This document shows positions 782 through 30,585 of a DNA stretch of 64,000 nucleotides, one piece after another (the stretch's first letter is position 1; every line of letters starts with the position of its first letter). This DNA is from Candidatus Methylomirabilota bacterium (lineage in GTDB: Bacteria > Desulfobacterota > Binatia > Bin18). The DNA lies in assembly GCA_035575235.1 (NCBI GenBank), contig DATLYA010000005.1, forward strand, positions 369 through 64,368. Direction: 5' to 3'. The notes under the pieces were generated by a model, which was not told where the DNA came from, searched no databases, and worked only from the letters and a program-made list of their open reading frames with translations. Both the position numbers and the translations under genes were made by a program.

Positions 782-813
782 TTGACCTTCTCCTATACTG
801 GAAGGTGTAGCTT
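782..813 (+). promoter_or_regulatory. MerR/CueR-type promoter-operator (long-spacer promoter with dyad)
   Basis: TTGACC (782-787), about 20-bp spacer, TAGCTT (808-813). Dyad ACCTTC-N10-GAAGGT at 785-806 inside the spacer. It resembles the CueR box of E. coli PcopA as I recall it. Confidence 0.6.
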
Positions 814-834
814 AACGTTGTGGAGGTCGTACCT

Positions 835-1299
835 ATGGCCGAGATGTTCATTGGAGAACTGGCTGCCCAGCTCGGGCTCAATCCGCGCACGCTGCGCTAC
901 TATGAAAATCTCGGCTTGCTTCCAGCGCCCGGTCGCACCGTGCACGGCTATCGCGTGTACGGCGAGGAGACCGCTCAGCGGCTGGCCTTTATTGCCAAGG
1001 CCAAAAGCCTCGGGCTCACTCTGAAGGAGATCCGGCAGATTCTCGCTCTGCGCGACAGTGGGCGGCTCCCCTGCGCCTCGGTACAGCGGCTCCTGCAGGA
1101 GCATGTCGCCCGCATCGACCGCCAACTCGCCCACTTGCAGGCGCTGAAGGCAGACCTGACCACCCTGCTCGACGGCTGGCGGCCGGAGAGGCAGCGCAAC
1201 GGGCAGGTTGTGCCCGGCGCCATCTGCCCCCGTATCGAGGCCAGCGGTGCGACCCCAAGAAAGTGCAACGCCACCAGGAAAGGAGATGAACGTCCATGA
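835..1299 (+). CDS. MerR-family heavy-metal-responsive transcriptional regulator
   Basis: MAEMFIGELAAQLGLNPRTLRYYENLGLLPAP...GYRVYGEE HTH, then a coiled-coil dimerisation helix. Cys80 is at the position used by divalent-metal MerR sensors; C-terminal Cys residues are present. TGA stop overlaps the next ATG. Confidence 0.9.
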   Translation: MAEMFIGELAAQLGLNPRTLRYYENLGLLPAPGRTVHGYRVYGEETAQRLAFIAKAKSLGLTLKEIRQILALRDSGRLPCASVQRLLQEHVARIDRQLAHLQALKADLTTLLDGWRPERQRNGQVVPGAICPRIEASGATPRKCNATRKGDERP

Positions 1300-1463
1300 C
1301 CAAGACTGTCTCGCTCTGCCCAAACTGTGACGCCTGTCCGATGGTCGAAATCGACGATCAGGAGGTACGTATCGGTGAGGAAGGGAACCTCGTGAAGTTA
1401 ACTCTGGCCGAGTGGAACGTCCTCGTGCAGGCGATTAAAGCCGGCGAGCTCGACGAACTGTAA
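1296..1463 (+). CDS. Small Cys-rich protein (55 aa, CPNCDACP motif), translationally coupled to merR-like gene
   Basis: ATGA overlap with the regulator stop, AGGAG RBS at 1281-1285. MTKTVSLCPNCDACPMVEIDDQEVRIGEEGNLVKLTLAEWNVLVQAIKAGELDEL. Below the ORF-track size cutoff. Confidence 0.5.
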   Translation: MTKTVSLCPNCDACPMVEIDDQEVRIGEEGNLVKLTLAEWNVLVQAIKAGELDEL

Positions 1464-1530
1464 CCCCCAGTACCAGGTTAAATCGAACCACATGACATTC
1501 GTACACTTGACGATGTGACCATCCATGGTT

Positions 1531-1590
1531 GTCATTCTGAGCGTAGCGAAGAATCTGACTGTGAGACCCTTCGCTTCACTCAGGGTGACA
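1531..1590. repeat. Palindromic intergenic repeat (GTCATTCTGAGCG..GAAGAATC / ..CTCAGGGTGAC family)
   Basis: Imperfect inverted repeat. A related copy lies at 62306-62397, with cousins at 47794-47870 and 53178-53247. Confidence 0.6.
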
Positions 1591-1754
1591 TAGCTAGTGA
1601 GCCAATCTCCTGTGGACTAATTTAGACCTCACTACCCTGGCTCTTTCTGCAAAGAGGAAAGAACGCTCTTCCTCGCAATGGAGAAGGTCTGGGTGAGGGT
1701 TGTGCAAAGGAGAACGAAGGCGGGCGAACCCTCTTCAGGAAAAGAAGTGAAGCG

Positions 1755-2054
1755 ATGGCACTGAAAGTCGTAGGTGCAAAAATCTCCTGCATGATCGGGA
1801 CGCTGTTCGCCCTCCCCTGGTGATGACTGCTACCATGGATCTTCTCCCTGCTCGGGTCAGCAGGGGTCGGAGTCGCAGCAGTATGGGTCGGGAAATTCAC
1901 GCCGGTGTTTCTCGTGATTTCCCTCGCCTTCCTTGGGCGAGCCCACTACCTGCTCTACCGGCGGCAACACGGAAACCGGCTGAGCAGGACATTGGTGTGG
2001 TTCTCAACGGTTACCGCAGTAGCTCTGTGGGCCTATCGGTTTGGAGTCATGTAA
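1755..2054 (+). CDS. MerT-like small membrane protein with tandem selenocysteines (UGA-UGA 1821-1826) replacing the CC pair
   Basis: MALKVVGAKISCMIGTLFALPW[UU]LLPWIFSLLGSAGVGVAAVWVGKFTPVFLVISLAFLGRAHYLLYRR...; single open frame apart from the two TGA. Aligns to the Cys paralogue 25764-26103 (LLSTCCRGPTLYVLFGVSVGG...GLLGYAFHHLYIR) and to the MerT ACCLGPLVL motif. Confidence 0.75.
1846..1865 (+). promoter_or_regulatory. Candidate SECIS hairpin for UGA-UGA 1821-1826
   Basis: CCCTGC/GCAGGG 6-bp stem with loop UCGGGUCA, 19 nt after the second UGA. Confidence 0.45.
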
Positions 2055-2070
2055 CAAGGAGGCGTCACCC

Positions 2071-2421
2071 ATGGAAAAAACAAAGAGAGTGATAGGGCTG
2101 ATCGCGTGTCTGCTCCTCCTGTCAGGTTTGCCGCATCCCTTTGTGGCGCAGGCCGCAGCAGGAGAGCGGGTGAAAGTCCAAGTAGCGGGGATGGTGTGAC
2201 AGTTCTGAGCGTATAACGTCAAGGCGGCCGTGAGCCGCTTGGATTTTGCTCCCTCCATTAACGAGATGAAAGTGGACTTGGAGGCGGGGACGCTAGAGTT
2301 CACTGCCCGTGCAGGCACGCGCATTGATCAGGAAAAGTTGAAGAAGGCCATTGAGGATGCGGGGTATAAGGTGGAAGGGATAGAGATGACCACCACGAGA
2401 AACAACGAAGGCACGCCATGA
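2071..2421 (+). CDS. MerP-like periplasmic heavy-metal-associated (HMA) protein with UxxU metal site (UGA 2197-2199 and 2206-2208)
   Basis: AAGGAGG RBS and signal peptide MEKTKRVIGLIACLLLLSGL...AQA. ERVKVQVAGMV[U]QF[U]AYNVKAAVSRL...KLKKAIEDAGYKVEG matches the HMA GMxCxxC fold. The Cys paralogue at 26141-26419 has GMSCAMC. Confidence 0.85.
2222..2240 (+). promoter_or_regulatory. Candidate SECIS hairpin for UGA 2197/2206
   Basis: 7-bp stem AAGGCGG.C/GCCGCUU (one G-U pair) with loop CGUGA, 13 nt after the second UGA. Confidence 0.5.
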
Positions 2422-3383
2422 CTGCAGGAGCCTTCGTGACCACAGCGTTCGGGATGGCCTGGGCGACCTTGCACTATATCGTCTTTTACCGCTTTGCTAT
2501 CGGGTTTGCCTTCTTCTTCTCTGTGCTCCTCCAGTTCTTCTTCCCCGCTGAGAGGTGGCTGCAAGTTATCCGTAAACATTCAGGGCCTATACCGATTCTG
2601 GCTGCGGCCGGCTTGGGGCTCACAACGTCGCCGGGCCGTCAGGCAATAGAGAACAACTTTTTCCAGCTGGTAGCTGTGAAAGCTCCGCTGACCGCGCTGG
2701 TGGCATACTTGATCTGCAGCCACAATTTGACGGTCTACTATCTCCTAATGCTGGGGCCGCTGCTCGGCAAGGACGTGCTCTTCTCACACGTGCTTGGGGG
2801 CGTGATGGTTTTCATCACCGCCAGTCTCGGCCTCAGCCTTGTTTTTGGCAAGACTCATAAGCCTGGCAAGCTTGAGGCGAACGAGGACGCTGCCGTTGCC
2901 CAACCCACTGTGCGGCTGGAGAGGCTCGTTCGGGCAGTGGGCTCGGAGCTGTGGGCAACAGGTCCCCTAGTCCTTTACGGCCTGCTGCTCGGTGGTCTCA
3001 TTGCCGCGTGGGGACTTTCTCCCTGGCACGTTGTCCCAGTGACCCTTTTGGGGAGCGGTCTGACCGCGCAAGTCACCAACGCCGTCCTTGGGCTTGGAGT
3101 ATCTTTTCTGACCTGGATGAGCCCCGTCGCAAACCTCTTTGTTGGCACCTATATCTGGAAGGTGGGCATCGCTCATGCGGGGCTCGTGAGTTTTTTCTTT
3201 GCCAGCCTCGTCTCCTGGCCGCGGGTACGCCTGTACCAAAGAACCCTGGGAGATAGACAGGGTGCAGTTTTCGCCATTGTACTGGCTCTAGCGGCTCTCG
3301 CAGCGGGGCTCCTCGTGGCGCTCTTCTTTCACGTCACCGGCCTGTCTATCCACTACAAGCTCATTGCTCAGCAGATGCTGTAG
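2418..3383 (+). CDS. Polytopic inner-membrane permease (possibly COG0701/ArsP_1-like)
   Basis: ATGA overlap with the MerP-like stop. 321 aa, about 8-10 hydrophobic spans. The family call is from general resemblance only. Confidence 0.7.
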   Translation: MTAGAFVTTAFGMAWATLHYIVFYRFAIGFAFFFSVLLQFFFPAERWLQVIRKHSGPIPILAAAGLGLTTSPGRQAIENNFFQLVAVKAPLTALVAYLICSHNLTVYYLLMLGPLLGKDVLFSHVLGGVMVFITASLGLSLVFGKTHKPGKLEANEDAAVAQPTVRLERLVRAVGSELWATGPLVLYGLLLGGLIAAWGLSPWHVVPVTLLGSGLTAQVTNAVLGLGVSFLTWMSPVANLFVGTYIWKVGIAHAGLVSFFFASLVSWPRVRLYQRTLGDRQGAVFAIVLALAALAAGLLVALFFHVTGLSIHYKLIAQQML

Positions 3384-3394
3384 GAGGAGCGGTC

Positions 3395-4288
3395 ATGGCA
3401 AAGCGGCAGTTTGGCGTCACAGTGGTTGTTGCAATCCTCTTGCTCCTGGGTGGGAAAGAGAGCCCGGCCCTGCCTATCCGTACGACTGATCCGAATGTCG
3501 GCATCTTCTCTGGCTCAGCCGCTCTGGGTCGAGTGGAGTTCGCAGAGGCGTCGAGGCCAGGGGTAGACGTCTCCGCTACGATCGTGCCCACCATGTTCCT
3601 CTATAGTCCCACGACTTACAGCGCGTTTGGCATTGTCGCCCCCTACGTAGAAAAACGCCTGAATCTCAAAGGCAAGGGAGACGAATTCACCCAGGGGATT
3701 TCTGATATCATGCTTCTCGGTCGGTACAAATTCTTTAGCCTGCCACAGAAGCAGGCGTGGAATCAGGCAGCGTTTCAGCTCACGCTCAAGCTCCCCACAG
3801 GTCCGACCGACAGACGTATCAACCTTCCCGTGCCTCCATCGGTAAAGCGGGCGTTGCAGCCTGGAACGGGCTCGACCGATTTCATCTTTGAGTTCGCCGG
3901 TGGCAGGTTCACCACCCGTTACAACCTGCTGGCCAACATCGGCTATCGGCTGAACACCGAAGATGATGAGATCTCCTTTGGCGACCAATTTTTTGTGAAG
4001 ACGGACCTTGAATACTTCCTTTTTCCGTGGCTGACACGAAAACATGGCCAAGAAGTCATTAGCCTGCTCGAGTTCAGCTTTGTCCATGCTGAACGAGATC
4101 AATTCAAGGACAGAGGCGTGCCCAACAGCGGTGGCAACAGCTTCTTCCTTGCCCCCGGTCTTCAATGGATTGTGAGTGAGCGGTTCCTGGTGGAAACCTC
4201 GATCCAGCTTCCCCTATCTCAAGACTTGGCGGGTAAACAGCCTATGCTCGACCAGAGTGTGCTGGTTGGAGTTCGCTTTGTGTACTGA
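3395..4288 (+). CDS. Outer-membrane beta-barrel protein (MetA-pathway/transporter-like)
   Basis: AGGAGGAG RBS, signal peptide, alternating beta-strand pattern, C-terminal ...VGVRFVY aromatic terminus. Confidence 0.7.
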   Translation: MAKRQFGVTVVVAILLLLGGKESPALPIRTTDPNVGIFSGSAALGRVEFAEASRPGVDVSATIVPTMFLYSPTTYSAFGIVAPYVEKRLNLKGKGDEFTQGISDIMLLGRYKFFSLPQKQAWNQAAFQLTLKLPTGPTDRRINLPVPPSVKRALQPGTGSTDFIFEFAGGRFTTRYNLLANIGYRLNTEDDEISFGDQFFVKTDLEYFLFPWLTRKHGQEVISLLEFSFVHAERDQFKDRGVPNSGGNSFFLAPGLQWIVSERFLVETSIQLPLSQDLAGKQPMLDQSVLVGVRFVY

Positions 4289-4363: not shown

Positions 4364-4660
4364 TCACTCCACTAACTCCGCCCACATGGCGCTATGGGCT
4401 GTCGCCTCACCAATCACCGCCGCCGCCAGGACGCCTTCATTTAGCAACGCGCGTGCAAGCGCCTCCGCCTCGCGTTCAGGCACGGCGATCAAAAGTCCAC
4501 CTGACGTTTGTGGATCAAACGCCACTTCGTTCAGATCCTGGGGGACGCGCGGATCGACGCGCACTTTATCCGCCACATACGTACGATTGCGCTTGCTACC
4601 TCCGGTGACGTACCCTTCCAACGCGAGCCGCAGAGCGCCAGGCAATAGAGGCAGCGCGGC
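4364..4660 (-). pseudogene. selD: 3' remnant of selenophosphate synthetase gene (about 98 C-terminal codons only)
   Basis: ...LPLLPGALRLALEGYVTGGSKRN...AFDPQTSGGLLIAVPEREAEALARALLNEGVLAAAVIGE matches the SelD C-terminus (LPG..GG..RN...DPQTSGGLL). Homology stops near 4660, where the opposite-strand AhpD-like ORF begins. Confidence 0.7.
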
Positions 4661-4663
4661 AGC

Positions 4664-5548
4664 ATGCTGCCAGATGCGGCGATAGATGCCATTCACCGAG
4701 TAGTGACAGATTCCGGCCGGCTCACGCAGTCCTGGTTTCAGCAGACGATGGCGTCTGGAGAAATCACTGATGCGCAGTATGTGGAGATTATCGATGTAGT
4801 GGTGACGGTGGTCAGCATCGACAGCTTTTGTCGCGGCATTGGGGTTCCGCTGCATCCACTCCCTGAACCACAAGAGGGAGAACCGTCGCGCTATCGCCCT
4901 GCGACAGCTCAACTACAGGAAGCCTGGGTGCCTATGATTCCGGTAGAGGGAGCGACCGGGGCCGAAGCTGACCTGTGGAATCCCACAGGGCGGGTCGGCA
5001 ACGTGATCCGCGCCTTAAGTTTGATTCCTGACGCGGTGCGTCAGCTCATGGACCTGAGCAACGCCCACTACGTGCCTCGTGATCGCTTGATGGATTTCAC
5101 GTGGAGCCGGTCGTTGTCGCGTGCGCAAATGGAACTGATCGCGGGTCGCGTCTCAGCGCTCCGGGGGTGTTTCTATTGAACGACCGCGCACGCAATGCTG
5201 CTCCGGGCGAGCGGCCAGGCGACCGGTCAAGCCTTCGACCTCCACGCAGTGACTGAGGGAACGACCACAGTGAGAAGCGGAGTAGCCCATGAAGAAACCC
5301 TCGTAGCATCGGCGGAAGCAATGGTTAGTGACGACGAGCAGGCGCTGGCAACCGCTCGTACACGCGTCCTCGAAGAATTGGGACCTGAGGCGCTGGTTGA
5401 TGCGGCTGGGGTAGCGTCGAACTTCGAGCGGATGGTCCGCATTGCCGATGCTACGGGCATTCCCTTGGACAGCTTTCTCGATGAGATGACTGTCGACCTG
5501 AGAACGGAGCTGCACTTGACCCGGTTTGAGTCCGTCACGAACGTCTAG
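4664..5548 (+). CDS. AhpD/CMD-family (alkylhydroperoxidase-like) selenoprotein, motif C-F-Y-U (UGA 5177-5179)
   Basis: Track ORFs 4664..5179 and 5195..5548 are in the same frame, separated only by TGA. ...RVSALRGCFY[U]TTAHAMLL matches the AhpD-family N-x-C-x-Y-C-x-x-x-H signature. The 5' end may be truncated at the selD junction. Confidence 0.8.
5197..5215 (+). promoter_or_regulatory. Candidate SECIS hairpin for UGA 5177-5179
   Basis: GCUGCUC/GAGCGGC 7-bp stem (one G-U) with loop CGGGC, 17 nt after the UGA. Confidence 0.5.
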
Positions 5549-6592: not shown

Positions 6593-7510
6593 GTGGAGGA
6601 AATGAGGAGGACTCGTATGCGTCACGCATGGATGTATGTCTTCGCCAGTATAAGTACGTGTTTCGCCACTGCGGCTGCCCACGCCCACGGCGCGGTAGGA
6701 AAGCGAGTATTTATTGAACCTTTTGTGACAGAAGACGCCAACCCTAAAAATGAGTTTGTCATTGCGAAACCTGGATTTTTTAACACTGACGAGGGCAACG
6801 TATTTTCGCTTGGTTTTGCGCTGGAAAAGAAGCTGTCAAACAACTTCAGCCTCACCTTGGAAGGCGAGTGGACCTCTGAACGGGCTGGCGGCCAGCCGCA
6901 TGTAGAGGGATTTCAAAACCCGGGAATCCTGCTCAAGTACAGTGTGTGGAAAGATCTGGCGCGAGAGTTCATCCTCTCGCCGGCTCTGGAAATTGAGTTC
7001 CCACTTGGTGATCGGGAAGTGGGGGCAGCAAGGGAGCTGATCGTCGCCCCCCTCCTCCTTTTTGCCCGGGGATTGGGCGACCTGCCGCAAAGTCTGTCGT
7101 ACCTCCACCCTCTCGCGCTGATGGGAGACATCGGGTTTGAGATCCTGACGAATGCGGAGACCGAAACCGTCCTCAAATATGACATCCTGCTGATGTACAG
7201 CCTTCCCTATCTTCGCGCTCACGTTCGTGAGCTTGACGCTCCGTGGCCGTTCACTCGGCTTATCCCCTTGGTGGAGTTCAACTTTGAAACCGGGGTGAAT
7301 GGAGAAGCTCGCCTAACCAAGGCTCGGCTGACTCCCGGCGTGGTATACCAGGGGCAGTTCGTGCAACTTGGTGTAGCTGGGCAATTTCCCCTCAATCGTA
7401 CGACCGCTCGAGAGTTAGATCCCAGCCTCCTGTTCCTGGTAGATCTCTTCTACGACGATCTCTTTCCCGCACTCGCCCAAACGTCGTGGGGCACGGGGAG
7501 TAAGGAGTAA
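6593..7510 (+). CDS. Putative outer-membrane/exported beta-rich protein
   Basis: Signal-like N-terminus (MRHAWMYVFASISTCFATAAAHA) and amphipathic beta pattern. Start is uncertain (6593, 6602 or 6617). Confidence 0.55.
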   Translation: MEEMRRTRMRHAWMYVFASISTCFATAAAHAHGAVGKRVFIEPFVTEDANPKNEFVIAKPGFFNTDEGNVFSLGFALEKKLSNNFSLTLEGEWTSERAGGQPHVEGFQNPGILLKYSVWKDLAREFILSPALEIEFPLGDREVGAARELIVAPLLLFARGLGDLPQSLSYLHPLALMGDIGFEILTNAETETVLKYDILLMYSLPYLRAHVRELDAPWPFTRLIPLVEFNFETGVNGEARLTKARLTPGVVYQGQFVQLGVAGQFPLNRTTARELDPSLLFLVDLFYDDLFPALAQTSWGTGSKE

Positions 7511-7662
7511 CAAAAAAGAAGAACAGCACGTGCGCGTGCTCCCCCAAGGGTTCGCGTTGTACGCAGGGGTGCTCCGTATCTGCCGGCTCAATCTATAACT
7601 CTTGAGAAGAGAGGCGGTAACCTTTCTCATGGCGATTCCGTCTGTATTCTGGAGGAGGCGTC

Positions 7663-8727: not shown

Positions 8728-9330
8728 ATGGAAGCACGGCTCTCACAGAAAGAGAAAGAACTCGTCGCAGTCGGCGCCTCCGTGGCAGCGGGGTGTATCC
8801 CGTGTACCGAGTATCACCTGAAGGAAGTGAAGGGAGCTGGAGCCACGACCCAGGAAATTACGGCGGCCATTGATGCTGCTCTCTGTGTGAAAGGCAGCAC
8901 GCGCGGCATCATGGAGCAGGTGGCATACCAGGCGCTGGGCGTGCCCAGAGAAGAGCAGCCGTCCTGCTGCGCGGGGCCAACTGATCGCATGAAAGAGCTC
9001 GTCTCGATTGCGGCCGCAGTGGCGGTCAACTGTCCAACAAACCTGCGCAAGCATGGGGATGCCGGTCGCAGCGTGGGCGTGCGCACAGAAGAGATTCAGC
9101 TTGTCGTTGGATTGGCCAAAATGATTCGCAGCAAAGCGATGGAAAAGACTGATGAGGTGGCAAAGGAGTTAGCCGCTCCCACCTGTGCTCCGCTTCAGGC
9201 GTCTTGTGGCCCGACAGTGCAGATTGCACCCCAACCCCAGACGGCGATGGGAAGTTGTTGCGGTCCCAGCGTCAGCGTCCGACCCGGCGTACAGCCTGTG
9301 CAGGCATCGGCAAAGGGGTCATGCTGCTAA
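8728..9330 (+). CDS. Carboxymuconolactone decarboxylase (CMD/AhpD-like) family protein with Cys-pair-rich tail
   Basis: LSQKEKELVAVGASVAAGCIPCTEYHLKEVKGAGATTQEI. A second degenerate CMD repeat follows. Tail carries SCCAGP, GSCCGP and terminal GSCC. Good RBS. Confidence 0.85.
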   Translation: MEARLSQKEKELVAVGASVAAGCIPCTEYHLKEVKGAGATTQEITAAIDAALCVKGSTRGIMEQVAYQALGVPREEQPSCCAGPTDRMKELVSIAAAVAVNCPTNLRKHGDAGRSVGVRTEEIQLVVGLAKMIRSKAMEKTDEVAKELAAPTCAPLQASCGPTVQIAPQPQTAMGSCCGPSVSVRPGVQPVQASAKGSCC

Positions 9331-9416
9331 CGTGAGACAGAAAGGCGAGAGAGTATCCCGGGGATATTCTCTCGTGCCGCTACGCTCTTCAAGAGCCGGC
9401 CAATTTGTATGTTGCG

Positions 9417-9445
9417 TTGACATATCAAAAAAATTTGATACAAAG
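9417..9445 (+). promoter_or_regulatory. Putative promoter plus palindromic operator upstream of acr3
   Basis: TTGACA (9417-9422) followed by the perfect palindrome TATCAAAAAAATTTGATA (9423-9440). ArsR/SmtB-like operator is inferred; no arsR gene is seen in the window. Confidence 0.35.
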
Positions 9446-9598
9446 AAAGCGAAGAAGAAGGCGTCATTGCCTCTCACATGTCGGGCCGTACTGAACTGAA
9501 CAAGCACCGGAGTCCCATTCGCCAACGAAAATTCTTCGAATTGTATCTTGTCATCCTGCTGCGATATTCTCATGACTGATAAGGAGAGTCGAGGATTC

Positions 9599-10660
9599 AT
9601 GAACAACCACTTGTCGTTTCTCGATCGGTTTCTCACCCTGTGGATTTTTCTGGCGATGGCCGTTGGAGTCTCCGCGGGCCATCTCATCCCCAACGTGGAA
9701 TCCTTCATCAACCGCTTCCAGGTCGGCACGACTAACATTCCGATCGCCATTGGCCTCATCCTGATGATGTATCCACCGTTGGCGAAGGTGCGCTACGAAG
9801 AGCTGGGGCAGGTGTATCGCAACTGGAAAATCCTAGGCCTCTCGCTGGTGCAAAACTGGGTCATCGGCCCGATTCTCATGTTTGTCCTCGCCCTGTTGTT
9901 TCTGCGAGACTACCCTGAGTACATGGTCGGCTTGATCATGGTCGGCTTGGCTCGCTGTATCGCCATGGTCATTGTGTGGAATGAACTGGCCCGAGGAGAT
10001 ACCGAATACTGCGCCGGGCTGGTAGCGTTCAACAGTGTGTTTCAGGTGCTGTTTTACAGCGTCTATGCCTGGGTGTTCATTACGGTGTTGCCGCCGCTGT
10101 TTGGTCTGCAGGGCAGCATCGTCGATATCAGCATCGGGCAGATTGCCGAGAGTGTGTTTATTTACCTTGGGATTCCCTTCCTTGCAGGAATGGCTACCCG
10201 GTTCGTGTTAGTCAAAGCAAAAGGCAAGGAATGGTACCATACCGTCTTCATCCCGCATATTAGTCCCATTACCCTGATTGCGCTCCTCTTCACGATTGTG
10301 GTGATGTTCAGTCTCAAGGGCAATCTGATCGTTCAACTGCCGTTTGACGTCATTCGTATTGCCATCCCCCTCTTTTTCTACTTCGTGGCGATGTTTTTAG
10401 TGAGCTTTTATATGGGTCGGAAAGTTGGGGCGGATTACTCGCAGACAGCGACGCTCTCCTTTACGGCGGCCAGCAACAACTTTGAGCTCGCCATCGCCGT
10501 GGCGGTGGCGGTGTTTGGCATCAATTCCGGCACGGCCTTTGCCGCGGTGATCGGGCCGTTGGTGGAAGTGCCGGTGTTGGTTAGTTTAGTGAACGTGGCC
10601 TTGTGGTTTCAGCGGCAATATTTTGGGGGTAGTGCCCGGCCTTTCTTGGTGCGCTCCTAA
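9599..10660 (+). CDS. acr3: ACR3-family arsenite efflux transporter
   Basis: [24 protein letters not shown]...[26 protein letters not shown]...[24 protein letters not shown] 10 nt upstream of ATG 9599. Confidence 0.95.
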
Positions 10661-10807
10661 CACCAAATAAGGCAACGTACAAAAACCCCCTGGCGGTGAG
10701 CGCTGAGAGGAGGTTAAACAACAGAGCCCGTGTCCAGCTGAAACCGCCGTCGACCAGCACCCCGCAGGCGCCGTGTTTCTGGAGAATCGCGTGAAGGATA
10801 CAGAGAT

Positions 10808-10924
10808 TTATTTCTTTTGCATTTCCTCACCGCAGCATTTGAGCGTGCCCGCGCCGCCTTTGGTGACAATAACCTGGGCGCCGCATTTCGTACAGACATA
10901 CATTTTGCCAAGTTGATTGGGCAT
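10808..10924 (-). CDS. Desulforedoxin-like small FeS4/zinc-ribbon protein (38 aa)
   Basis: MPNQLGKMYVCTKCGAQVIVTKGGAGTLKCCGEEMQKK matches the desulforedoxin pattern YxCxxCG...G.L.CCG..M. AAGGAG RBS. Below the track cutoff. Confidence 0.75.
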   Translation of the reverse strand: MPNQLGKMYVCTKCGAQVIVTKGGAGTLKCCGEEMQKK

Positions 10925-11128
10925 ACTCGTATTTACTCCTTACCAGGAACGCGAGATCTCTATCACCATTAGCATGCTGATCTCGTTGGCAACAGGGGAA
11001 GAATGTTGTCATTGACGAGAGAGGAGACCTGACGACGCTGAACAGCCGCGAGCTGGTAACCTTTTCCCGGACTGAGTGGGGTAATCGCGACGATCTTCCC
11101 ATTGAACGGTAGGAAGGAAGAACATCTT

Positions 11129-11986
11129 GTGAAGAGTTTGTTGTTTCTCTGTGTGGCGAATTCGGCGCGTAGTCAAATGGCTGAGGGACTGGCGCGCCGT
11201 CTCTTCAGTGACACCGTGCAGGTGCAAAGTGCGGGATCGAACCCTACGCAGGTAAATCCACTGGCGATCGAGGTGATGGCGGAAATTGGTATAGATATTT
11301 CTGGCCACACCGCAAAGTCGATTGACGCACTTGACCTGGCGGCGGTGGATACGGTGATCACCCTGTGCGCCGAGGAAGTGTGTCCGGTTTTTCTCGGTCA
11401 AGCGGAACGACTACATTGGCCGATCCCCGATCCGGCAGGGCATGAGGGCGAATCGCCTGAGCAGCAACTGCACCGCTTTCGCGCCGCCCGCGAGCAGCTT
11501 CGCGGGCGGCTGGAAGTGCTCGCGGCGCTGCGCGAGGTCCCTACGGCGCCAACTTTTGACGAATTCCATTGTAGTGTGCGGGTTACTGATCTGCCGCGGA
11601 GCGCGCACTTTTACGCCTGGCTACTGGGAACCCGTCCTAAGGAGTGGACTCACCGATATGTGACGTTTCATCTGCCCCAGCGGCATACCAACTTCGTGCT
11701 GGTGGTGTCAGACGGCAAAGAGTTGCATCACGATACGTTGTATCATCTGGGGATCGGCGTGCCGGACAAGCAAGCCGTACTCGATTGGTATGAACGGGCG
11801 GTGAGGGCAGGATGGCCGATTGCCAAGCCGCCGCGCACCACCTGGCGCGGGACGCCCTTGCATGAACTGTGGCTCACCGACCCAGATGGAAACCTGATCG
11901 AGATCTACGCCCGGCTGACGGAGGCGGAGCTCGCTATGAAACCGGCAGACGAGGAACCGGTGTTCCTCGTCCCACGCACTCCCTAG
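11129..11986 (+). CDS. arsC: Arsenate reductase (LMW-PTP type) fused to a VOC/glyoxalase-fold domain
   Basis: [20 protein letters not shown] (CX5R-S P-loop), TLCAEEVCP Cys pair, DPAG. The C-terminal about 150 aa is VOC-like ([10 protein letters not shown]...[17 protein letters not shown]). GTG 11129 is taken by analogy with the paralogue at 30949. Confidence 0.85.
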
Positions 11987-12006: not shown

Positions 12007-13574
12007 TCAACGGGTCCAGGCGAGCCATTTGCTGAACAGCCGCTTCACAAACGGTGTCAGCCGTGTGCGGTTGAATTGATCGCCTAGTTTACGGATGGCC
12101 TCGGCGTGGGTCGGATAGGGGTGAATCGTGCCGCCAATCTTCTTCAGCCCGAGGCCGTGTGTGATCGCCAACGACAGTTCAGAGATCATATCGCCCGCGT
12201 GACGCGCGACAATGGTTGCACCCACGATAGTGTCTGTTCCTTTCTTCACGTGCACTTTGACGAAACCGTCCTCATCGCCGTCTAACACCGCGCGGTCGAC
12301 ATCGCGGAACTCCTGGACGAACGTGTCAACGTCGATCCCCTTTTCTTTCGCTTGGCCTTCGTACAGCCCCACATGGGCGATTTCGGGCGAGGTGTAGGTA
12401 CACCAGGGCATCCCAGCGAGGTGGACTTCTTGCGGCCTTTGAAGAGGGCATTGTGAATCACGATGCGCGCCATAAAATCGGCGGCATGGGTAAACTGGTA
12501 GGGTGAACAAATATCGCCCGCGGCGTAAATCCGGGGGTTTGTCGTCTGCAGGCGGTCGTTGACCTTCACGCCTTTCTTGTCGTACTCCACCCCCACCGCT
12601 GCCAGATTCAGATGTTCGACATTTGGCGCTCGGCCAACAGATACCAACAGTTGGTCGAGCGGCTCATCGTAGCTCTGCCCATGCGAGTCAACCGTGAGTC
12701 GAATGCCGCGCTCGTTTTTGATCGTCAAGTTTTGCCCGCAACAGAGGAGCGTGACGCCGTCTCGTGTGATCGCCCGTTGCACGACCTCCGCTGCGTCACG
12801 GTCTTCGCGCGGCAGGATGCCGTGTTCCGCCTCGACCAGAAACACTTCAGACCCCAGCTGCGCGAACGCCTGCGCCATCTCGCAACCGATCGGCCCGGCG
12901 CCAATGACGCCGAGTCGTCGGGGAAGCTCGGTCAGCGAGAATATTGTTTCGTTGGTCAGATAGTCCACTGAGTCCAAACCAGGAATCGGCGGCGCCGCGG
13001 CGCGCGCGCCGGTCGCGATCACGGCCTGCTTGAAGTTGAGCCGCGTCCCGTCCACCTCAACGGTGCTGGAATCTACAAACTGCGCCTGCCCGAAATAGAC
13101 GTCAACGCCAAGATCGCGGAATCGTTGCGCCGCATCATTCCGGCTGATACGGGCTCGCAACCGTCGCATCCGTTGCATGACGGCGGCAAAGTCCACCTTC
13201 ACCCCGGTTGACACTTCGACACCGAACTCGCGAGCAATGCCCACGGCTGCCGCGACGCGGGCGGCACTAATAACACCCTTCGACGGTACGCAGCCAACGT
13301 TCAGGCAGTCGCCGCCCATCAGGCTGTGCTCGATCAGCGCGACCTTGGCGCCCAGGCCAGCGGCTCCGGCTGCCGTCACCAACCCAGCAGTGCCAGCGCC
13401 GATGACAACCAGATTGTAGCGCCCACTTGGTTGCGGATTCACCCAGTCCAAGGGATGAATGTTACGAACCAGTTCCTGATTGAACTCGTCCGCCGGACTG
13501 GTTTGCGGTAAGTGCTCAATCACCGGCTGATCGACAAGATGCAGGCGTTTTTTCTGAATCACGGACTCCCCCAT
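12007..13574 (-). pseudogene. FAD-dependent pyridine nucleotide-disulfide oxidoreductase (mercuric-reductase/dihydrolipoamide-dehydrogenase family), frameshifted near 12408-12420
   Basis: GAGTAGLVTAAGAAGLGAKVALIE, redox-active CLNVGCVPSK, second GxGxxG. The C-terminal interface domain (IPWCTYTSPEIAHVGL...THPYPTHAE) continues in another frame (track ORFs 12282..13574 and 12007..12510). Confidence 0.85.
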
Positions 13575-14133: not shown

Positions 14134-14715
14134 ATGACCTGGGTAAAAACTTTTGCTGAGCATGAGGCCAGCGGACGACTGGCCGAGGTATATGCCGAGT
14201 TAATGAAACACCCACTCGGTGGGGGTCGGGTACCCAACATCATGAAGTGCATGAGCCTGCGACCGGAAGCCCTCCTCGGCGTCTGGCGCCTCAACATGGG
14301 CATCACCTTTGGCGCCTCAACCCTTGGACGGGTGCGGGAGGAGATGATCGCTACTGCGGTCTCTGCCCTCAACCACTGCCATTATTGAACGAATTCCCAC
14401 GCAGAGTTTCTGCGTATGGAGACCGGAAACCACACTTTAGTGAAACATCTCAAGACCGACCCCACTAATGCTCCACTGGCGCCGCCAGACAAGGCCATGA
14501 TCGACTTCGCCCTCAAGCTCACACGCGAGCCCTGGACCGTCAAACAGGCAGATGTCGAGGGTCTCCAGCAGCACGGCTTCAGCGAAGAGCAGGTAGTAGA
14601 TATCGTGCTGATCACCTGCACCTTTAACTTTATGGATCGCCTGGCCGATGGCCTGGGGGTGGAGCTCGATCCTAGGATGCAACGGCTAGTAGAAATGAAT
14701 GCAGACAAGAGCTAG
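14134..14715 (+). CDS. AhpD/CMD-family peroxidase-related selenoprotein, motif C-H-Y-U (UGA 14386-14388)
   Basis: Track ORFs 14134..14388 and 14416..14715 share a frame. ...TAVSALNHCHY[U]TNSHAEFLR... matches S..N.C.YC...H. Strong RBS (AAAGGAGGAG). Confidence 0.85.
14399..14415 (+). promoter_or_regulatory. Candidate SECIS hairpin for UGA 14386-14388
   Basis: ACGCAG/CUGCGU perfect 6-bp stem with loop AGUUU, 10 nt after the UGA. Confidence 0.55.
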
Positions 14716-25763: not shown

Positions 25764-26103
25764 ATGCGTAAAGAAGCCATTAGCAGTTTAAGCTCACTGG
25801 TTCCAGCGTTTTTGCTCAGCACTTGTTGCCGAGGGCCAACGCTGTACGTGCTGTTCGGGGTCAGCGTGGGGGGGGCTCAGCCTCTTTACTCCGCTCGAAC
25901 CGTACCGCCCGGCGTTTATGCTGGCGGCGGTGGGGCTGCTTGGCTACGCCTTTCATCATCTGTATATCCGCCCGCCGCAGTTTGACTGCGTAGAGAATGG
26001 GCGCTCGGCCCTGCGAACCAGCCGCATCGTGTTCTGGATCGCCAGCCTGGTCTTTGTCGTGGCCGCGCTTTACCCGGTGGTGTTGCCTCATTTCGTGTCC
26101 TGA
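25764..26103 (+). pseudogene. merT: MerT mercuric-ion transport protein (Cys form), frameshifted in a G8 tract (25868-25875)
   Basis: MRKEAISSLSSLVPAFLLSTCCRGPTLYVLFGVSVGG / LSLFTPLEPYRPAFMLAAVGLLGY...IVFWIASLVFVVAALYPVVLPHF. LEPYRP and the C-terminal helix match Tn501 MerT. With G7 the frame would be continuous. Confidence 0.75.
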
Positions 26104-26140: not shown

Positions 26141-26419
26141 ATGCAGAAGCAACAGTGGATGACACTCATAGGAGCTCTTGCCCTCGCTTTAAGCACGACA
26201 GCGTGGGCCGGGGAACGGACGGTGAATCTCAAAGTAGACGGCATGTCGTGCGCCATGTGTGCGCCAGCCGCCCGCAAAGCGCTAGAGAAAGTTGATGGCG
26301 TGCAGGCGGCGAAGGTGGAAGGTGACCGGGCGACGGTGGTGGCTGACGAAAAGGTGCAGGACACTGACCTCGTCAAAGCGATTGAAGGGGCAGGCTTCTC
26401 AGCAACCGTGGAGAATTGA
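26141..26419 (+). CDS. merP: MerP-like periplasmic HMA metal-binding protein (Cys form, GMSCAMC)
   Basis: Signal peptide, then TVNLKVDGMSCAMCAPAARKALEKVDGV...AIEGAGFSATVEN. Confidence 0.85.
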   Translation: MQKQQWMTLIGALALALSTTAWAGERTVNLKVDGMSCAMCAPAARKALEKVDGVQAAKVEGDRATVVADEKVQDTDLVKAIEGAGFSATVEN

Positions 26420-29340: not shown

Positions 29341-30585
29341 ATGGAACCTTTCGCTATCGGATTGTATCTCGTCGGCGTTCTCCTGCTCGCGCTAACCTTT
29401 TTCCCTTTCTCCCCTATGACGCTCAAGTTCTGGATGCCGAAGCGCGAGACCATGCTCTTTGCTCATCAGCATCGCGTACTGCTCCGCGGACTTGGGAGCC
29501 TGAGCGTAGCAATCACTTTTTTTCTCGCCATGACGGGGGATGTCGCAACCGAGTGGGGTTGGGTTGCTGGGCTGACTGGAGTGTTTTTCCTCGCTTTTTG
29601 GTGGGGGGGCTATGTCCCGGTCATCATGGGCTCTCCCCAGGACCAGCAACTGCTCAGCGCTGAACAAGCTGAGACCATTCTGAAACCCCAAGACGATGTG
29701 TTAGGCGTGGTGCTGGATGGTGAGGCGCATGCGTATCCGCGGATGGCCATCACTAGGCCACATCTTTATCATGACACGATCGGCGGCATTCCCATCACCG
29801 TAACATATTGCATCCTGTGTAACTCGGGGGTTGCCTTACGGGCAGAGCTTGAAGGACAACCACTCTCTCTCCACCCTATCACCGCCTTCAATAACAACAT
29901 TATCTACTACGATGCTCAGAGTGGAAATTACATCCAACAGTTGGAAGGAGACGTTATTGCTGGCCCAGCAAAGGGAAAACGGCTCGCGACGCTGCCCACC
30001 ACCTTGACCACATGGCGGACCTGGAAAGAACTGTACCCACGGACTCGGGTGCTTTTTGCCCCAGAAACAAAACTGCGCGATCGTATGTTGACGAACATGC
30101 TGCACTGGATGATGCCGCTTGCTGGACTGATGCAACGTCGCACCCCTTGGCATCCATTAAATGTAAATGGTAATCGAGACGAACGGCTGCCAGCGATGAC
30201 TCCGATCTTTGGCGTAGAGGTGAAAAGGGAAAGAAAAGCCTATCCCCTCTCGTTGTTGCGCAACCGCAAGGTTGTAAACGATGCACTGGATGGTGTTCCT
30301 ATCGTGATACTCTACGATCCGGCGCGTGATACGGGAGGTGTCTTTACACGGGAAGTCGATGGCCGAGTCCTCACATTCCGCGCCTTTGCGAACGGGGTCT
30401 CTCAGATCGTAGCGATGGATGAAGAAACACGAAGCTTGTGGGATGTGAGAGGAAAAGCCTGCGAAGGAGTCTCAGCAGGCACAGGCTTGTCCCCGGTTCC
30501 TCACTTTGGGAAAGTATTTTGGTTTAGTTGGGCCACATTTCGACCGGGGACGAGACTCGAAACAGAGGTCGCCGGTGGACATTAA
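29341..30585 (+). CDS. DUF3179 domain protein (Cys form, TYCILCNSG) with N-terminal TM region
   Basis: ...GEAHAYPRMAITRPHLYHDTIGGIPITVTYCILCNSGVAL...TLTTWRTWKELYP. Serves as the Cys reference for the two Sec paralogues. Confidence 0.85.
   Translation: MEPFAIGLYLVGVLLLALTFFPFSPMTLKFWMPKRETMLFAHQHRVLLRGLGSLSVAITFFLAMTGDVATEWGWVAGLTGVFFLAFWWGGYVPVIMGSPQDQQLLSAEQAETILKPQDDVLGVVLDGEAHAYPRMAITRPHLYHDTIGGIPITVTYCILCNSGVALRAELEGQPLSLHPITAFNNNIIYYDAQSGNYIQQLEGDVIAGPAKGKRLATLPTTLTTWRTWKELYPRTRVLFAPETKLRDRMLTNMLHWMMPLAGLMQRRTPWHPLNVNGNRDERLPAMTPIFGVEVKRERKAYPLSLLRNRKVVNDALDGVPIVILYDPARDTGGVFTREVDGRVLTFRAFANGVSQIVAMDEETRSLWDVRGKACEGVSAGTGLSPVPHFGKVFWFSWATFRPGTRLETEVAGGH

Follow-up and report, generated by a model that had tools for sequence, protein, structure and literature searches.

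A MerR-family-regulated operon beside mercury-resistance genes with two probable metal-ligand sites built from selenocysteine

In this study, we analysed a window of 64,000 nt (contig DATLYA010000005.1, positions 369-64,368, assembly GCA_035575235.1) and, within it, an operon on the forward strand at 782-4288 (coordinates without a locus name are window positions) which comprises, in this order, a promoter, a MerR-family regulator gene, an open reading frame (ORF) of 55 amino acids (aa), a merT-like gene, a gene for an HMA-domain protein, a permease gene and a gene for an outer-membrane barrel (Table 1). We consider it probable, on balance, that the operon is functional, is regulated by its MerR-family protein and serves accessory metal trafficking within a mercury-resistance island, and that its two metal-ligand sites are built from selenocysteine (Sec, U). 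We are nearly certain that the four in-frame UGA codons of the merT-like and HMA genes are decoded as Sec at metal-ligand columns, and it is strongly supported that a single downstream selenocysteine insertion sequence (SECIS) hairpin in each gene serves both of its UGA codons. Relatives of the operon were compared in loci L001-L031, which include loci L028-L031 of the same species. An original prediction, made from the DNA letters alone, had proposed this gene string with its ATGA couplings, permease and barrel, and sequence, translation and Pfam bear it out.

Table 1. Position and nature of the operon's features.
Feature	Position	Strand	Characteristics
MerR-type promoter/operator	782-813	+	TTGACC, 20-bp spacer, TAGCTT; dyad ACCTTC-N10-GAAGGT inside the spacer
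MerR-family regulator, 2-Cys subtype	835-1299	+	Pfam MerR_1, MerR-DNA-bind, MerR
CxxCxxC miniprotein, cytoplasmic, 55 aa	1296-1463	+	ATGA overlap with the regulator gene
MerT-like membrane selenoprotein with three transmembrane helices, 99 codons	1755-2054	+	UGA UGA at 1821-1826; NF033560 below cut-off
Putative SECIS hairpin of the merT-like gene	1845-1866	+	stem UCCCUGCU/AGCAGGGG, loop CGGGUC
Periplasmic HMA-domain selenoprotein with signal peptide	2071-2421	+	UGA 2197-2199 and 2206-2208; Pfam HMA
Putative SECIS hairpin of the HMA gene	2222-2240	+	stem AGGCGGC/GCCGCUU, loop CGUGA
ArsP_1/YraQ-type inner-membrane permease, 321 aa	2418-3383	+	PF03773; ATGA overlap with the HMA gene
Outer-membrane beta-barrel with signal peptide	3395-4288	+	PF13557 Phenol_MetA_deg

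The merT-like ORF reads MALKVVGAKISCMIGTLFALPW-TGA-TGA-LLPWIFSLLG (local context FALPW-TGA-TGA-LLPW) and the HMA ORF reads VQVAGMV-TGA-QF-TGA-AYNVKAAVSRL. The region 1755-2421, which carries all four TGA codons, is 100% identical in five independent assemblies (L011, L028, L029, L030 and L031), which come from different samples and sources. Assembly error is thereby excluded for the TGAs, and the codons singled out by the original prediction stand as far as assemblies can answer. In both genes the in-frame UGAs align with Cys or Sec in homologues and the reading frame is conserved on either side: the codons N-terminal of the UGAs are conserved, and downstream of them synonymous and nonsynonymous changes are about equally frequent (e.g. 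12 versus 12 of 74 codons). Throughout the alignments TGA matches Cys, never Trp or Gly, and it is the ordinary stop codon of eight of the 20 confidently identified genes of the window; the genetic code is standard. Additionally, the window holds three further selenoprotein genes of known kinds (Grx-like, AhpD-related and CMD-family), indicating that the organism uses Sec elsewhere. The proposal that the four UGAs encode Sec at the ligand columns of a MerT-like/HMA pair is thus almost certainly correct.

The MerT-like protein is related to the merT_RC607 family (NF033560; E 5e-9 over 81 of 99 residues), although its score of 36.4 bits falls under the curated cut-off of 130, and no Pfam family, MerT (PF02411) included, was matched. 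Its UU pair lies within an LPW-UU-LLP motif of the first transmembrane (TM) helix, and hydropathy indicates a pair of neighbouring TM helices followed by a basic loop and one more TM helix. Thus, the vicinal ligand pair in the first of three TM helices that is typical of MerT is present, whereas the second, cytoplasmic Cys pair is lacking, as the loop GRAHYLLYRRQHGNRLSR contains no Cys. When the Cys homologue P0043 was searched against 1.84 billion representative proteins, only 37 relatives were retrieved. In an alignment of 33 sequences, the sole invariant columns are those of the CC pair, within an LPWCC[ILV]xP motif, and the UU of the window falls on these columns. In the DNA, UU is encoded in the window, L011, L012, L017, L021 and L022, CU in L023 and CC in L018 and L019.

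The original prediction also stated that the UGA columns match the ligand Cys of a second, Cys-type merT/merP pair in the window. For merP (26143-26419) this was confirmed directly, the encoded protein aligning with the HMA protein (E 2e-8) such that U falls on both Cys of its CxxC. For merT (25764-26103, +) it holds only after repair of a frameshift at a run of eight G residues (25868-25875): removal of one G yields a 112-aa MerT which aligns with the MerT-like protein, CC on UU, and the intact paralogue in L028 confirms this repair. A BLASTP comparison of the MerT-like protein with the Cys-type merT product as called had given no alignment, the cause being the frameshift and not absent homology. 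The G8 run is either an assembly indel or a slippage-prone tract.

The HMA protein matches the full Pfam HMA domain (PF00403; 39.2 bits, cut-off 24.8) and starts with a signal peptide (h-region LLLLSG, ending in AQA), so that it combines, like MerP, a signal peptide with an HMA fold bearing a ligand pair at the CxxC position. It scores well below the cut-off of the MerP equivalog TIGR02052 (23.6 versus 92.55 bits). A lipoprotein reading of the signal peptide (LIAC) was discarded since that Cys is not conserved among orthologues. The family shares the motif U-x-F-U-[AV]-Y-N-[VI]-KAAVSRL and, among 17 distinct gene versions at the DNA level, the site is UxxU in 12 and CxxU in five; L019 and L024 have Cys-form genes (CPFC). 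Where a source is named, it is a Desulfurellales, Myxococcales or Gemmatimonadota metagenome-assembled genome (MAG); the remainder are unclassified soil and sediment metagenome contigs. A scan of species-representative genomes returned five distant loci, none of the window's own lineage. All 23 database relatives of the protein are fragments of 63-66 aa that start past the second UGA, one of them being GenBank MGH7818924.1 from a Candidatus Binatia MAG. Records of this family being fragments only, the families go unrecognised as selenoproteins today.

Across the loci, the same columns therefore appear as CC, CU or UU in the MerT-like protein and as CxxC, CxxU or UxxU in the HMA protein, and the selenium state of the two partners agrees wherever both are present: six assemblies of one clade pair UU with UxxU, L023 pairs CU with CxxU, and in L019 (5001-6809) and L024 (628-1307) CC stands beside CxxC. 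In L023, the features concerned lie at 4467-4781, 6983-7213 and 7268-7609, and this locus contains a second CxxU HMA paralogue. Such concordance would fit a direct partnership of the two proteins, with few independent events behind it. In every Sec form of either protein, the ligand position nearer the hairpin is Sec, and in the CU and CxxU forms it is the sole Sec.

The hairpins, with apical loops containing G/U, begin 19 nt (merT-like gene) and 14 nt (HMA gene) past the second UGA. Every Sec form keeps that of the merT-like gene (about -14 to -16 kcal/mol), L022 and L023 with wobble (G-U) compatible changes, and it is weak or absent in Cys forms (-2.2 kcal/mol in L019 and -8.4 kcal/mol in L018); despite this loss, L019 retains the LGLAG motif and L018 a related VGITG. 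In the HMA gene, none of the 17 distinct sequences departs from GCGGCCGTGAGCCGC (2224-2238), even at the synonymous positions of its five codons (GCG GCC GTG AGC CGC), which make up the core of the hairpin AGGCGGC-CGUGA-GCCGCUU. Third-position entropy at other invariant residues (Gly, Pro, Leu) of the same alignment is 1.45-1.74 bits. This invariance at synonymous sites is as expected of a bacterial SECIS.

Certain results count against Sec insertion at these sites. The post-UGA regions gain nothing in folding energy over shuffled sequence (z 0.03 and -0.91), so that hairpins following the UGAs, as originally predicted, are present but draw their support from conservation rather than from energy; a covariation count on the 17 HMA sequences was uninformative because the core stem is invariant. 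ARAGORN found no tRNA, and hence no tRNA-Sec, in the window, which likewise holds no Sec-insertion gene except a C-terminal fragment of selD. Furthermore, neither a gathering scan of the window nor a permissive scan of 1750-2450 against Rfam identified a SECIS or other RNA family; to our knowledge, Rfam contains no general bacterial SECIS model, so that this negative carries little weight.

The permease matches ArsP_1 (PF03773; 52.9 bits, cut-off 32.3), and no NCBIfam family was matched; its relatives, about 40, are all metagenomic. It has GLTTSPG where ArsP and SO_0444 carry their vicinal Cys motif (CSC/USC, TPFCSCS). Across 26 relatives, His102, His124 and Asp119 are invariant and His253 is present in at least 90%; no Cys position is conserved. 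No solved structure was matched by sequence with the permease profile, and the AlphaFold2 model (pLDDT 86) gave weak fold matches to YdaH/TRAP-type transporters (TM-score 0.47, E 0.06), too weak to say anything of the direction of transport. The barrel matches PF13557 (27.1 bits, cut-off 22) and is syntenic with the HMA gene and permease at all related loci, these three forming the common core. The 55-aa protein, which carries LCPNCDACP and has no family match in Pfam or NCBIfam, is conserved in L011, L017, L021 and L013 at 57-100% identity; it accompanies the core in several related loci and a 2-Cys MerR-family regulator does so in most. Between the 55-aa and merT-like genes lies a spacer of 290 nt with an imperfect palindrome of 61 nt (1530-1590; TGTCATTCTGAGCGTAGCGAAGAATCTGAC / GTGAGACCCTTCGCTTCACTCAGGGTGACA) that occurs once in the window; in L021 this spacer holds an MFS transporter gene.

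Versions with Cys throughout occur in other settings. L019 encodes MerR, a barrel, a MerT-like protein (CC), two HMA proteins (CPFC) and a further barrel, and L026 MerR, a MerT-like protein (CC) and a barrel, with a merO-like promoter preceding the genes; both are driven by a canonical MerR, which counts in favour of a link to mercury. L024 combines CsoR with a MerT-like protein (CC) and a secreted HMA protein (CPFC), and L018 combines CsoR with a MerT-like protein (CC) and a P1B ATPase.

The promoter was evaluated by comparison with homologous operons. The arrangement TTGACCTTC-N10-GAAGGTGTA followed by TAnnnT, with a 20-bp spacer, recurs upstream of those in L017, L021, L022, L013 and L014, the operator half-sites being conserved and the centre variable; the promoter at 782-813 is real. 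The operon with its permease, outer-membrane barrel and MerR-type long-spacer promoter is therefore conserved in relatives, in keeping with the original prediction. The regulator has the MerR helix-turn-helix and dimerisation helix of a MerR-family activator and a dyad operator of the 19-20-bp-spacer type. Its scores against the NCBIfam CadR, MerR, ZntR and CueR models (83-102 bits) are all under the cut-offs of 143-168; for MerR sensu stricto, defined here by Cys at 79/82, 114/117 and 123/126, the score is 93.3 versus 150.85 bits, and for CueR, defined by Ser77, Cys112 and Cys120, it is 82.7 versus 147.4 bits. In an alignment including canonical 3-Cys MerRs, the orthologues in L017, L014 and L013 conserve only Cys80 and one loop Cys (ICPxI), and canonical 3-Cys MerRs adjoin the 2-Cys regulators in L013 and L014. 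Thus, of the CueR/MerR-type promoter and regulator originally predicted, the long-spacer dyad and Cys80 were upheld, but the regulator is, judged by its residues and profile scores, neither a canonical MerR nor a CueR.

The neighbourhood provides the strongest clue to the metal. In L028, of the same species and with an identical operon, positions 1-1631 hold the 3' end of merA (...KHLSCCAA), merT (112 aa) and merP directly upstream, merP ending 73 nt before window position 1; the Sec operon would be the downstream part of a mer locus cut by the start of the window. Similarly, L017 carries MerC, MerA, MerT and MerP; L021 MerA, MerT and MerP; L022 MerTP, MerC and MerA; L023 MerR and MerB; and L002 merT and merP. 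A second mer cluster, along with ars genes, lies within the window itself. No merA stands inside 782-4288; the gene is found directly upstream in L028 and close by in L017, L021 and L022. Since mer genes stand beside the operon in the same species and in most relatives, Hg(II) would most likely be its substrate. The predicted role in metal handling as such draws on homology to HMA and MerT_RC607 proteins and on the MerR-family regulator with its conserved operator.

The most economical reading would be an uptake path from MerP to the MerT-like protein that feeds MerA. A soft metal ion, most probably Hg(II), would enter across the outer membrane through the co-encoded barrel and be captured in the periplasm by the UxxU protein, from which ligand exchange may carry it to the inner membrane, there to the UU pair of the MerT-like protein, to the ArsP_1 permease that lacks Cys, or to both. 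Handling of the ion in the cytoplasm would fall to the CxxCxxC miniprotein and to the MerA encoded nearby, and here the metal may also cause the 2-Cys MerR-family activator to turn on the operon from its 20-bp-spacer promoter. Selenolates are already deprotonated at neutral pH, and their binding of Hg is stronger and their ligand exchange quicker than those of thiolates; selenolate sites could therefore strip the metal off strong environmental ligands or act at very low concentrations. Of the selenol-based capture and hand-off relay put forward in the original prediction, a soft thiophilic metal is sensible and mer linkage narrows it to Hg, but the hand-off and its direction follow from homology only.

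A number of points speak against mercury uptake. Transfer of Hg from a selenolate to the thiols of MerA is thermodynamically uphill, and MerR-type activators usually drive efflux. Besides Cys80, the regulator has a single Cys in its loop (AICPRIE), which is longer and has its first Cys replaced, and the operator is near-identical to the CueR box of Escherichia coli PcopA, TTGACCTTCCCCTTGCTGGAAGGTTTAACC (checked in the K-12 record). The merT-like gene was found, among loci of Sec-type operons, only in the window's clade and in L023, and more remote loci retain the HMA gene, permease and barrel but lack it; it is an accessory of one clade, outside the conserved core. Cys-type merT-like genes also occur under CsoR-type repressors, one of them beside a P1B ATPase, a linkage that points to Cu(I). 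Finally, the ArsP and SO_0444 relatives of the permease are described as exporters.

A rival reading has the same parts working in another direction and on another metal, i.e. as an efflux and periplasmic detoxification module for Cu(I), Ag(I) or Au(I) (or Cd), in which the ArsP_1 permease would export the ion out of the cytoplasm, the UxxU HMA protein would act as a periplasmic chaperone like CusF or CopZ, the barrel would release the ion through the outer membrane and the MerT-like UU protein would serve as an adaptor. The CueR-like operator, the Cys-type genes linked to CsoR and a P1B ATPase, and the exporter relatives of the permease speak for it. That the best NCBIfam matches of the HMA protein are CopZ models, and that the conserved core of HMA protein, permease and barrel does without a MerT-like importer, adds to its case. 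We nevertheless regard such a module as unlikely, with perhaps a quarter of the weight. Most of the longer loci have MerA, MerB, MerC, MerT, MerP or a canonical MerR as consistent neighbours, and no cop or cus genes were seen beside the Sec-type operons. As for CueR at PcopA, the shared feature is TTGACCTTC...GGAAGGT inside a long-spacer promoter with almost equal half-sites; the spacer there is 19 bp, compared with 20 bp here, and the half-sites here are one base pair further apart. Furthermore, CueR, a sensor of monovalent ions, has Ser77 and Cys112, whereas the regulator here has Cys at the Ser77 position and no equivalent of Cys112.

It is improbable that the UxxU and UU sites are instead redox centres, forming a selenol/diselenide oxidoreductase pair directed at Se, Te, As or oxidative damage of the envelope. 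Most known bacterial selenoproteins are redox proteins, and the neighbourhood is rich in redox selenoproteins (one Grx-like, two AhpD/CMD-like) and ars genes; against this, both the fold and the motif correspond to metal-binding sites of the HMA and MerT kind, the regulator belongs to the metal-sensor type of MerR and has a long-spacer promoter, and the operon encodes no partner for recycling reductant. That the TGAs are not Sec codons at all (being sequencing errors, pseudogene nonsense, plain stops or codons reassigned to Trp or Gly) is highly improbable and already contradicted, for although there are apparent frameshifts elsewhere in the window (the merT G8 run and a MerA-like gene), gene callers split both genes with 23 of 23 HMA matches being short fragments, and Sec machinery was not seen in the window, the TGAs are shared identically by five assemblies, recur at the same codons in 12-17 divergent genes with selected intact frames on both sides, align with Cys and never Trp or Gly while TGA stops eight of 20 genes, and are followed by a hairpin core conserved at synonymous sites.

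Returning to the mercury-linked trafficking operon, a bolder form of this proposal may be put forward tentatively, at somewhat less than an even chance. The operon would represent a purely selenolate route for Hg or another soft metal through periplasm and membrane, and would provide the first documented prokaryotic vicinal Sec-Sec, from adjacent UGAs under one SECIS. Donor and acceptor would have changed in step from CC/CxxC through CU/CxxU to UU/UxxU, implying a direct selenium-to-selenium hand-off of the metal, and the system would be widespread in uncultured soil lineages and unseen by annotation.

The closest described system is MerT/MerP of Tn21/Tn501 and of the Bacillus RC607 type (NF033560). 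Shared with it are a small protein of three TM helices, the first of which carries a vicinal ligand pair, a secreted HMA protein whose site is of the xxxGMxCxxC type, their side-by-side genes, a MerR-family activator at a long-spacer promoter, and an adjoining merA. The operon differs in its Sec ligands (UU and UxxU), in lacking the cytoplasmic Cys pair of the loop between TM helices 2 and 3, and in scores far under the cut-offs (36 versus 130 and 24 versus 93 bits). It adds a permease, an outer-membrane barrel and a CxxCxxC miniprotein, and its regulator has two Cys rather than three and a CueR-like operator.

Selenoprotein relatives are also on record, and the suggestion that a relay of this kind had not been described did not survive: MerT-family and UxxU HMA selenoproteins are already present in reviews and NCBIfam. 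MerT-related selenoproteins have been on lists since 2006 as a 'putative mercuric transport protein' (PF02411, ABB16073.1), and CU-motif MerT selenoproteins, e.g. WP_250634603.1, are known from comparative genomics and used by the annotation pipeline of NCBI. These, too, are MerT-related transporters with Sec at or near the metal site, the CU form of L023 being alike; they have one Sec (C/SxxU or CU), whereas in the protein here two Sec stand side by side and Pfam MerT is not matched, a comparison made at the level of the catalogued motifs. NF041115 (UxxU_metal_bind), formerly the 'putative mercuric reductase' of an Olavius symbiont, is likewise an HMA-type protein with UxxU and two Sec. The HMA protein here reaches 19.9 bits against its cut-off of 95 (over 29 residues), belongs to a different family, one with a signal peptide, and is encoded in an operon with a permease and barrel. 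NF045683, a MerT/CopZ fusion-like selenoprotein, has MerT-like and CopZ/HMA parts with Sec and joins both, so that the pairing of the two in Sec form is already curated. In the operon the two are separate genes, the HMA protein scoring 21.1 bits against a cut-off of 375 and the MerT-like protein having no match.

The SAO multi-selenoprotein metal system of Haft and Gwadz likewise has a PF03773 permease encoded with several selenoproteins, proposed to bind a metal resembling mercury by way of motifs of the CC, CU or U type. The permease here, unlike those of SAO and ArsP/SO_0444, carries neither a Cys nor a Sec motif, and the operon is without an ABC importer or a MerB-like lyase, is found in Gram-negative soil hosts and has an outer-membrane component. 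A review of May 2026 tabulates 119 prokaryotic selenoprotein families, with a MerT entry that has one Sec; a search of terms in its text and the stretches of its table that were covered gave no adjacent-UU motif, and a literature search on tandem or adjacent Sec in bacteria gave nothing relevant. The NCBIfam name ArsM_AhpD_UU was considered as a precedent for adjacent UU and discarded, since the 2026 review gives UxxG/CxxU and three Sec. Vicinal UU, these two families and the combined four-Sec operon thus appear to be undescribed in the searched literature and databases.

If these assignments are true, selenium would serve as metal ligand along a whole trafficking route and not as a redox catalyst, and selenium availability would be linked with Hg handling in soil bacteria that include a Candidatus Binatia relative, Gemmatimonadota and Myxococcales. 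Adjacent UGA codons under one SECIS would offer a natural system in which to test how much variation in spacing SelB tolerates, and the graded Cys/Sec series offers ready variants for gauging what Sec gains in metal affinity and exchange rate. Public databases shorten both Sec proteins at the UGA codons, as gene callers split both genes; since all HMA protein records found are such fragments, models of the two families would put annotation right and benefit surveys of mer-gene diversity.

Over its first ~30 kb, the window is a selenoprotein-rich metal(loid) island. The Grx-like gene (72-308, +) has its TGA (108-110) at the first active-site position (YTSLT-U-APC) and scores 84 bits against TIGR02196 (cut-off 88.6) and 61.6 against Uxx_star (cut-off 66); in L017 it is called as a 49-aa fragment. 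The AhpD-related gene with CFYUT (4664-5548, +; TGA 5177-5179) matches NF041238 with 397 bits (cut-off 175); it is split into two ORFs by the TGA and, with the profile match starting from position 66, its N-terminus may be shortened. The CMD/AhpD-family gene (14134-14715, +; TGA 14386-14388) has the motif C-H-Y-U and matches PF02627 with 37 bits. The selD C-terminal fragment (4364-4681, -) lies just past the barrel gene and covers positions 252-338 of 347 in NF002098 (E 5e-13), its 5' end overlapping the AhpD-related gene on the opposite strand. It had no counterpart in loci L001-L023 (the same-species loci L028-L031 lay outside this search) and looks like a gene remnant rather than a conserved part of the system.

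In an arsenic-type cluster (8728-11986, +), an AhpD-domain protein of the GSU3128 family in its Cys form is encoded together with an SBF/ACR3-type transporter (9548-10660) and a fusion of ArsC with an ArsI/CadI-like domain (11102-11986). The MerA-like FAD oxidoreductase gene (12007-13574, -) matches NF004991 with 597 bits over profile positions 7-399 of 509 only; its C-terminus appears to run on in the overlapping ORF 12007-12510, so that a second frameshift is probable. The Cys-type merT and merP described above belong to a second cluster, of MerR, Trx-like, merT and merP genes, at 24.7-26.4 kb. DUF3179 genes in L017 (11733-12659 and 13976-14884) and L021 (11072-11998) are each called as two pieces of about 100 and 184-199 aa, as expected of the known DUF3179 selenoprotein, and the copy in the window (29341-30585) is an uninterrupted Cys form (TYCILCNSG). 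Lastly, a LysW-like zinc-ribbon protein with four CxxC-type pairs (319-594, +) is encoded between the Grx-like gene and the promoter of the operon, and is conserved at that place in L017, L021 and L028.

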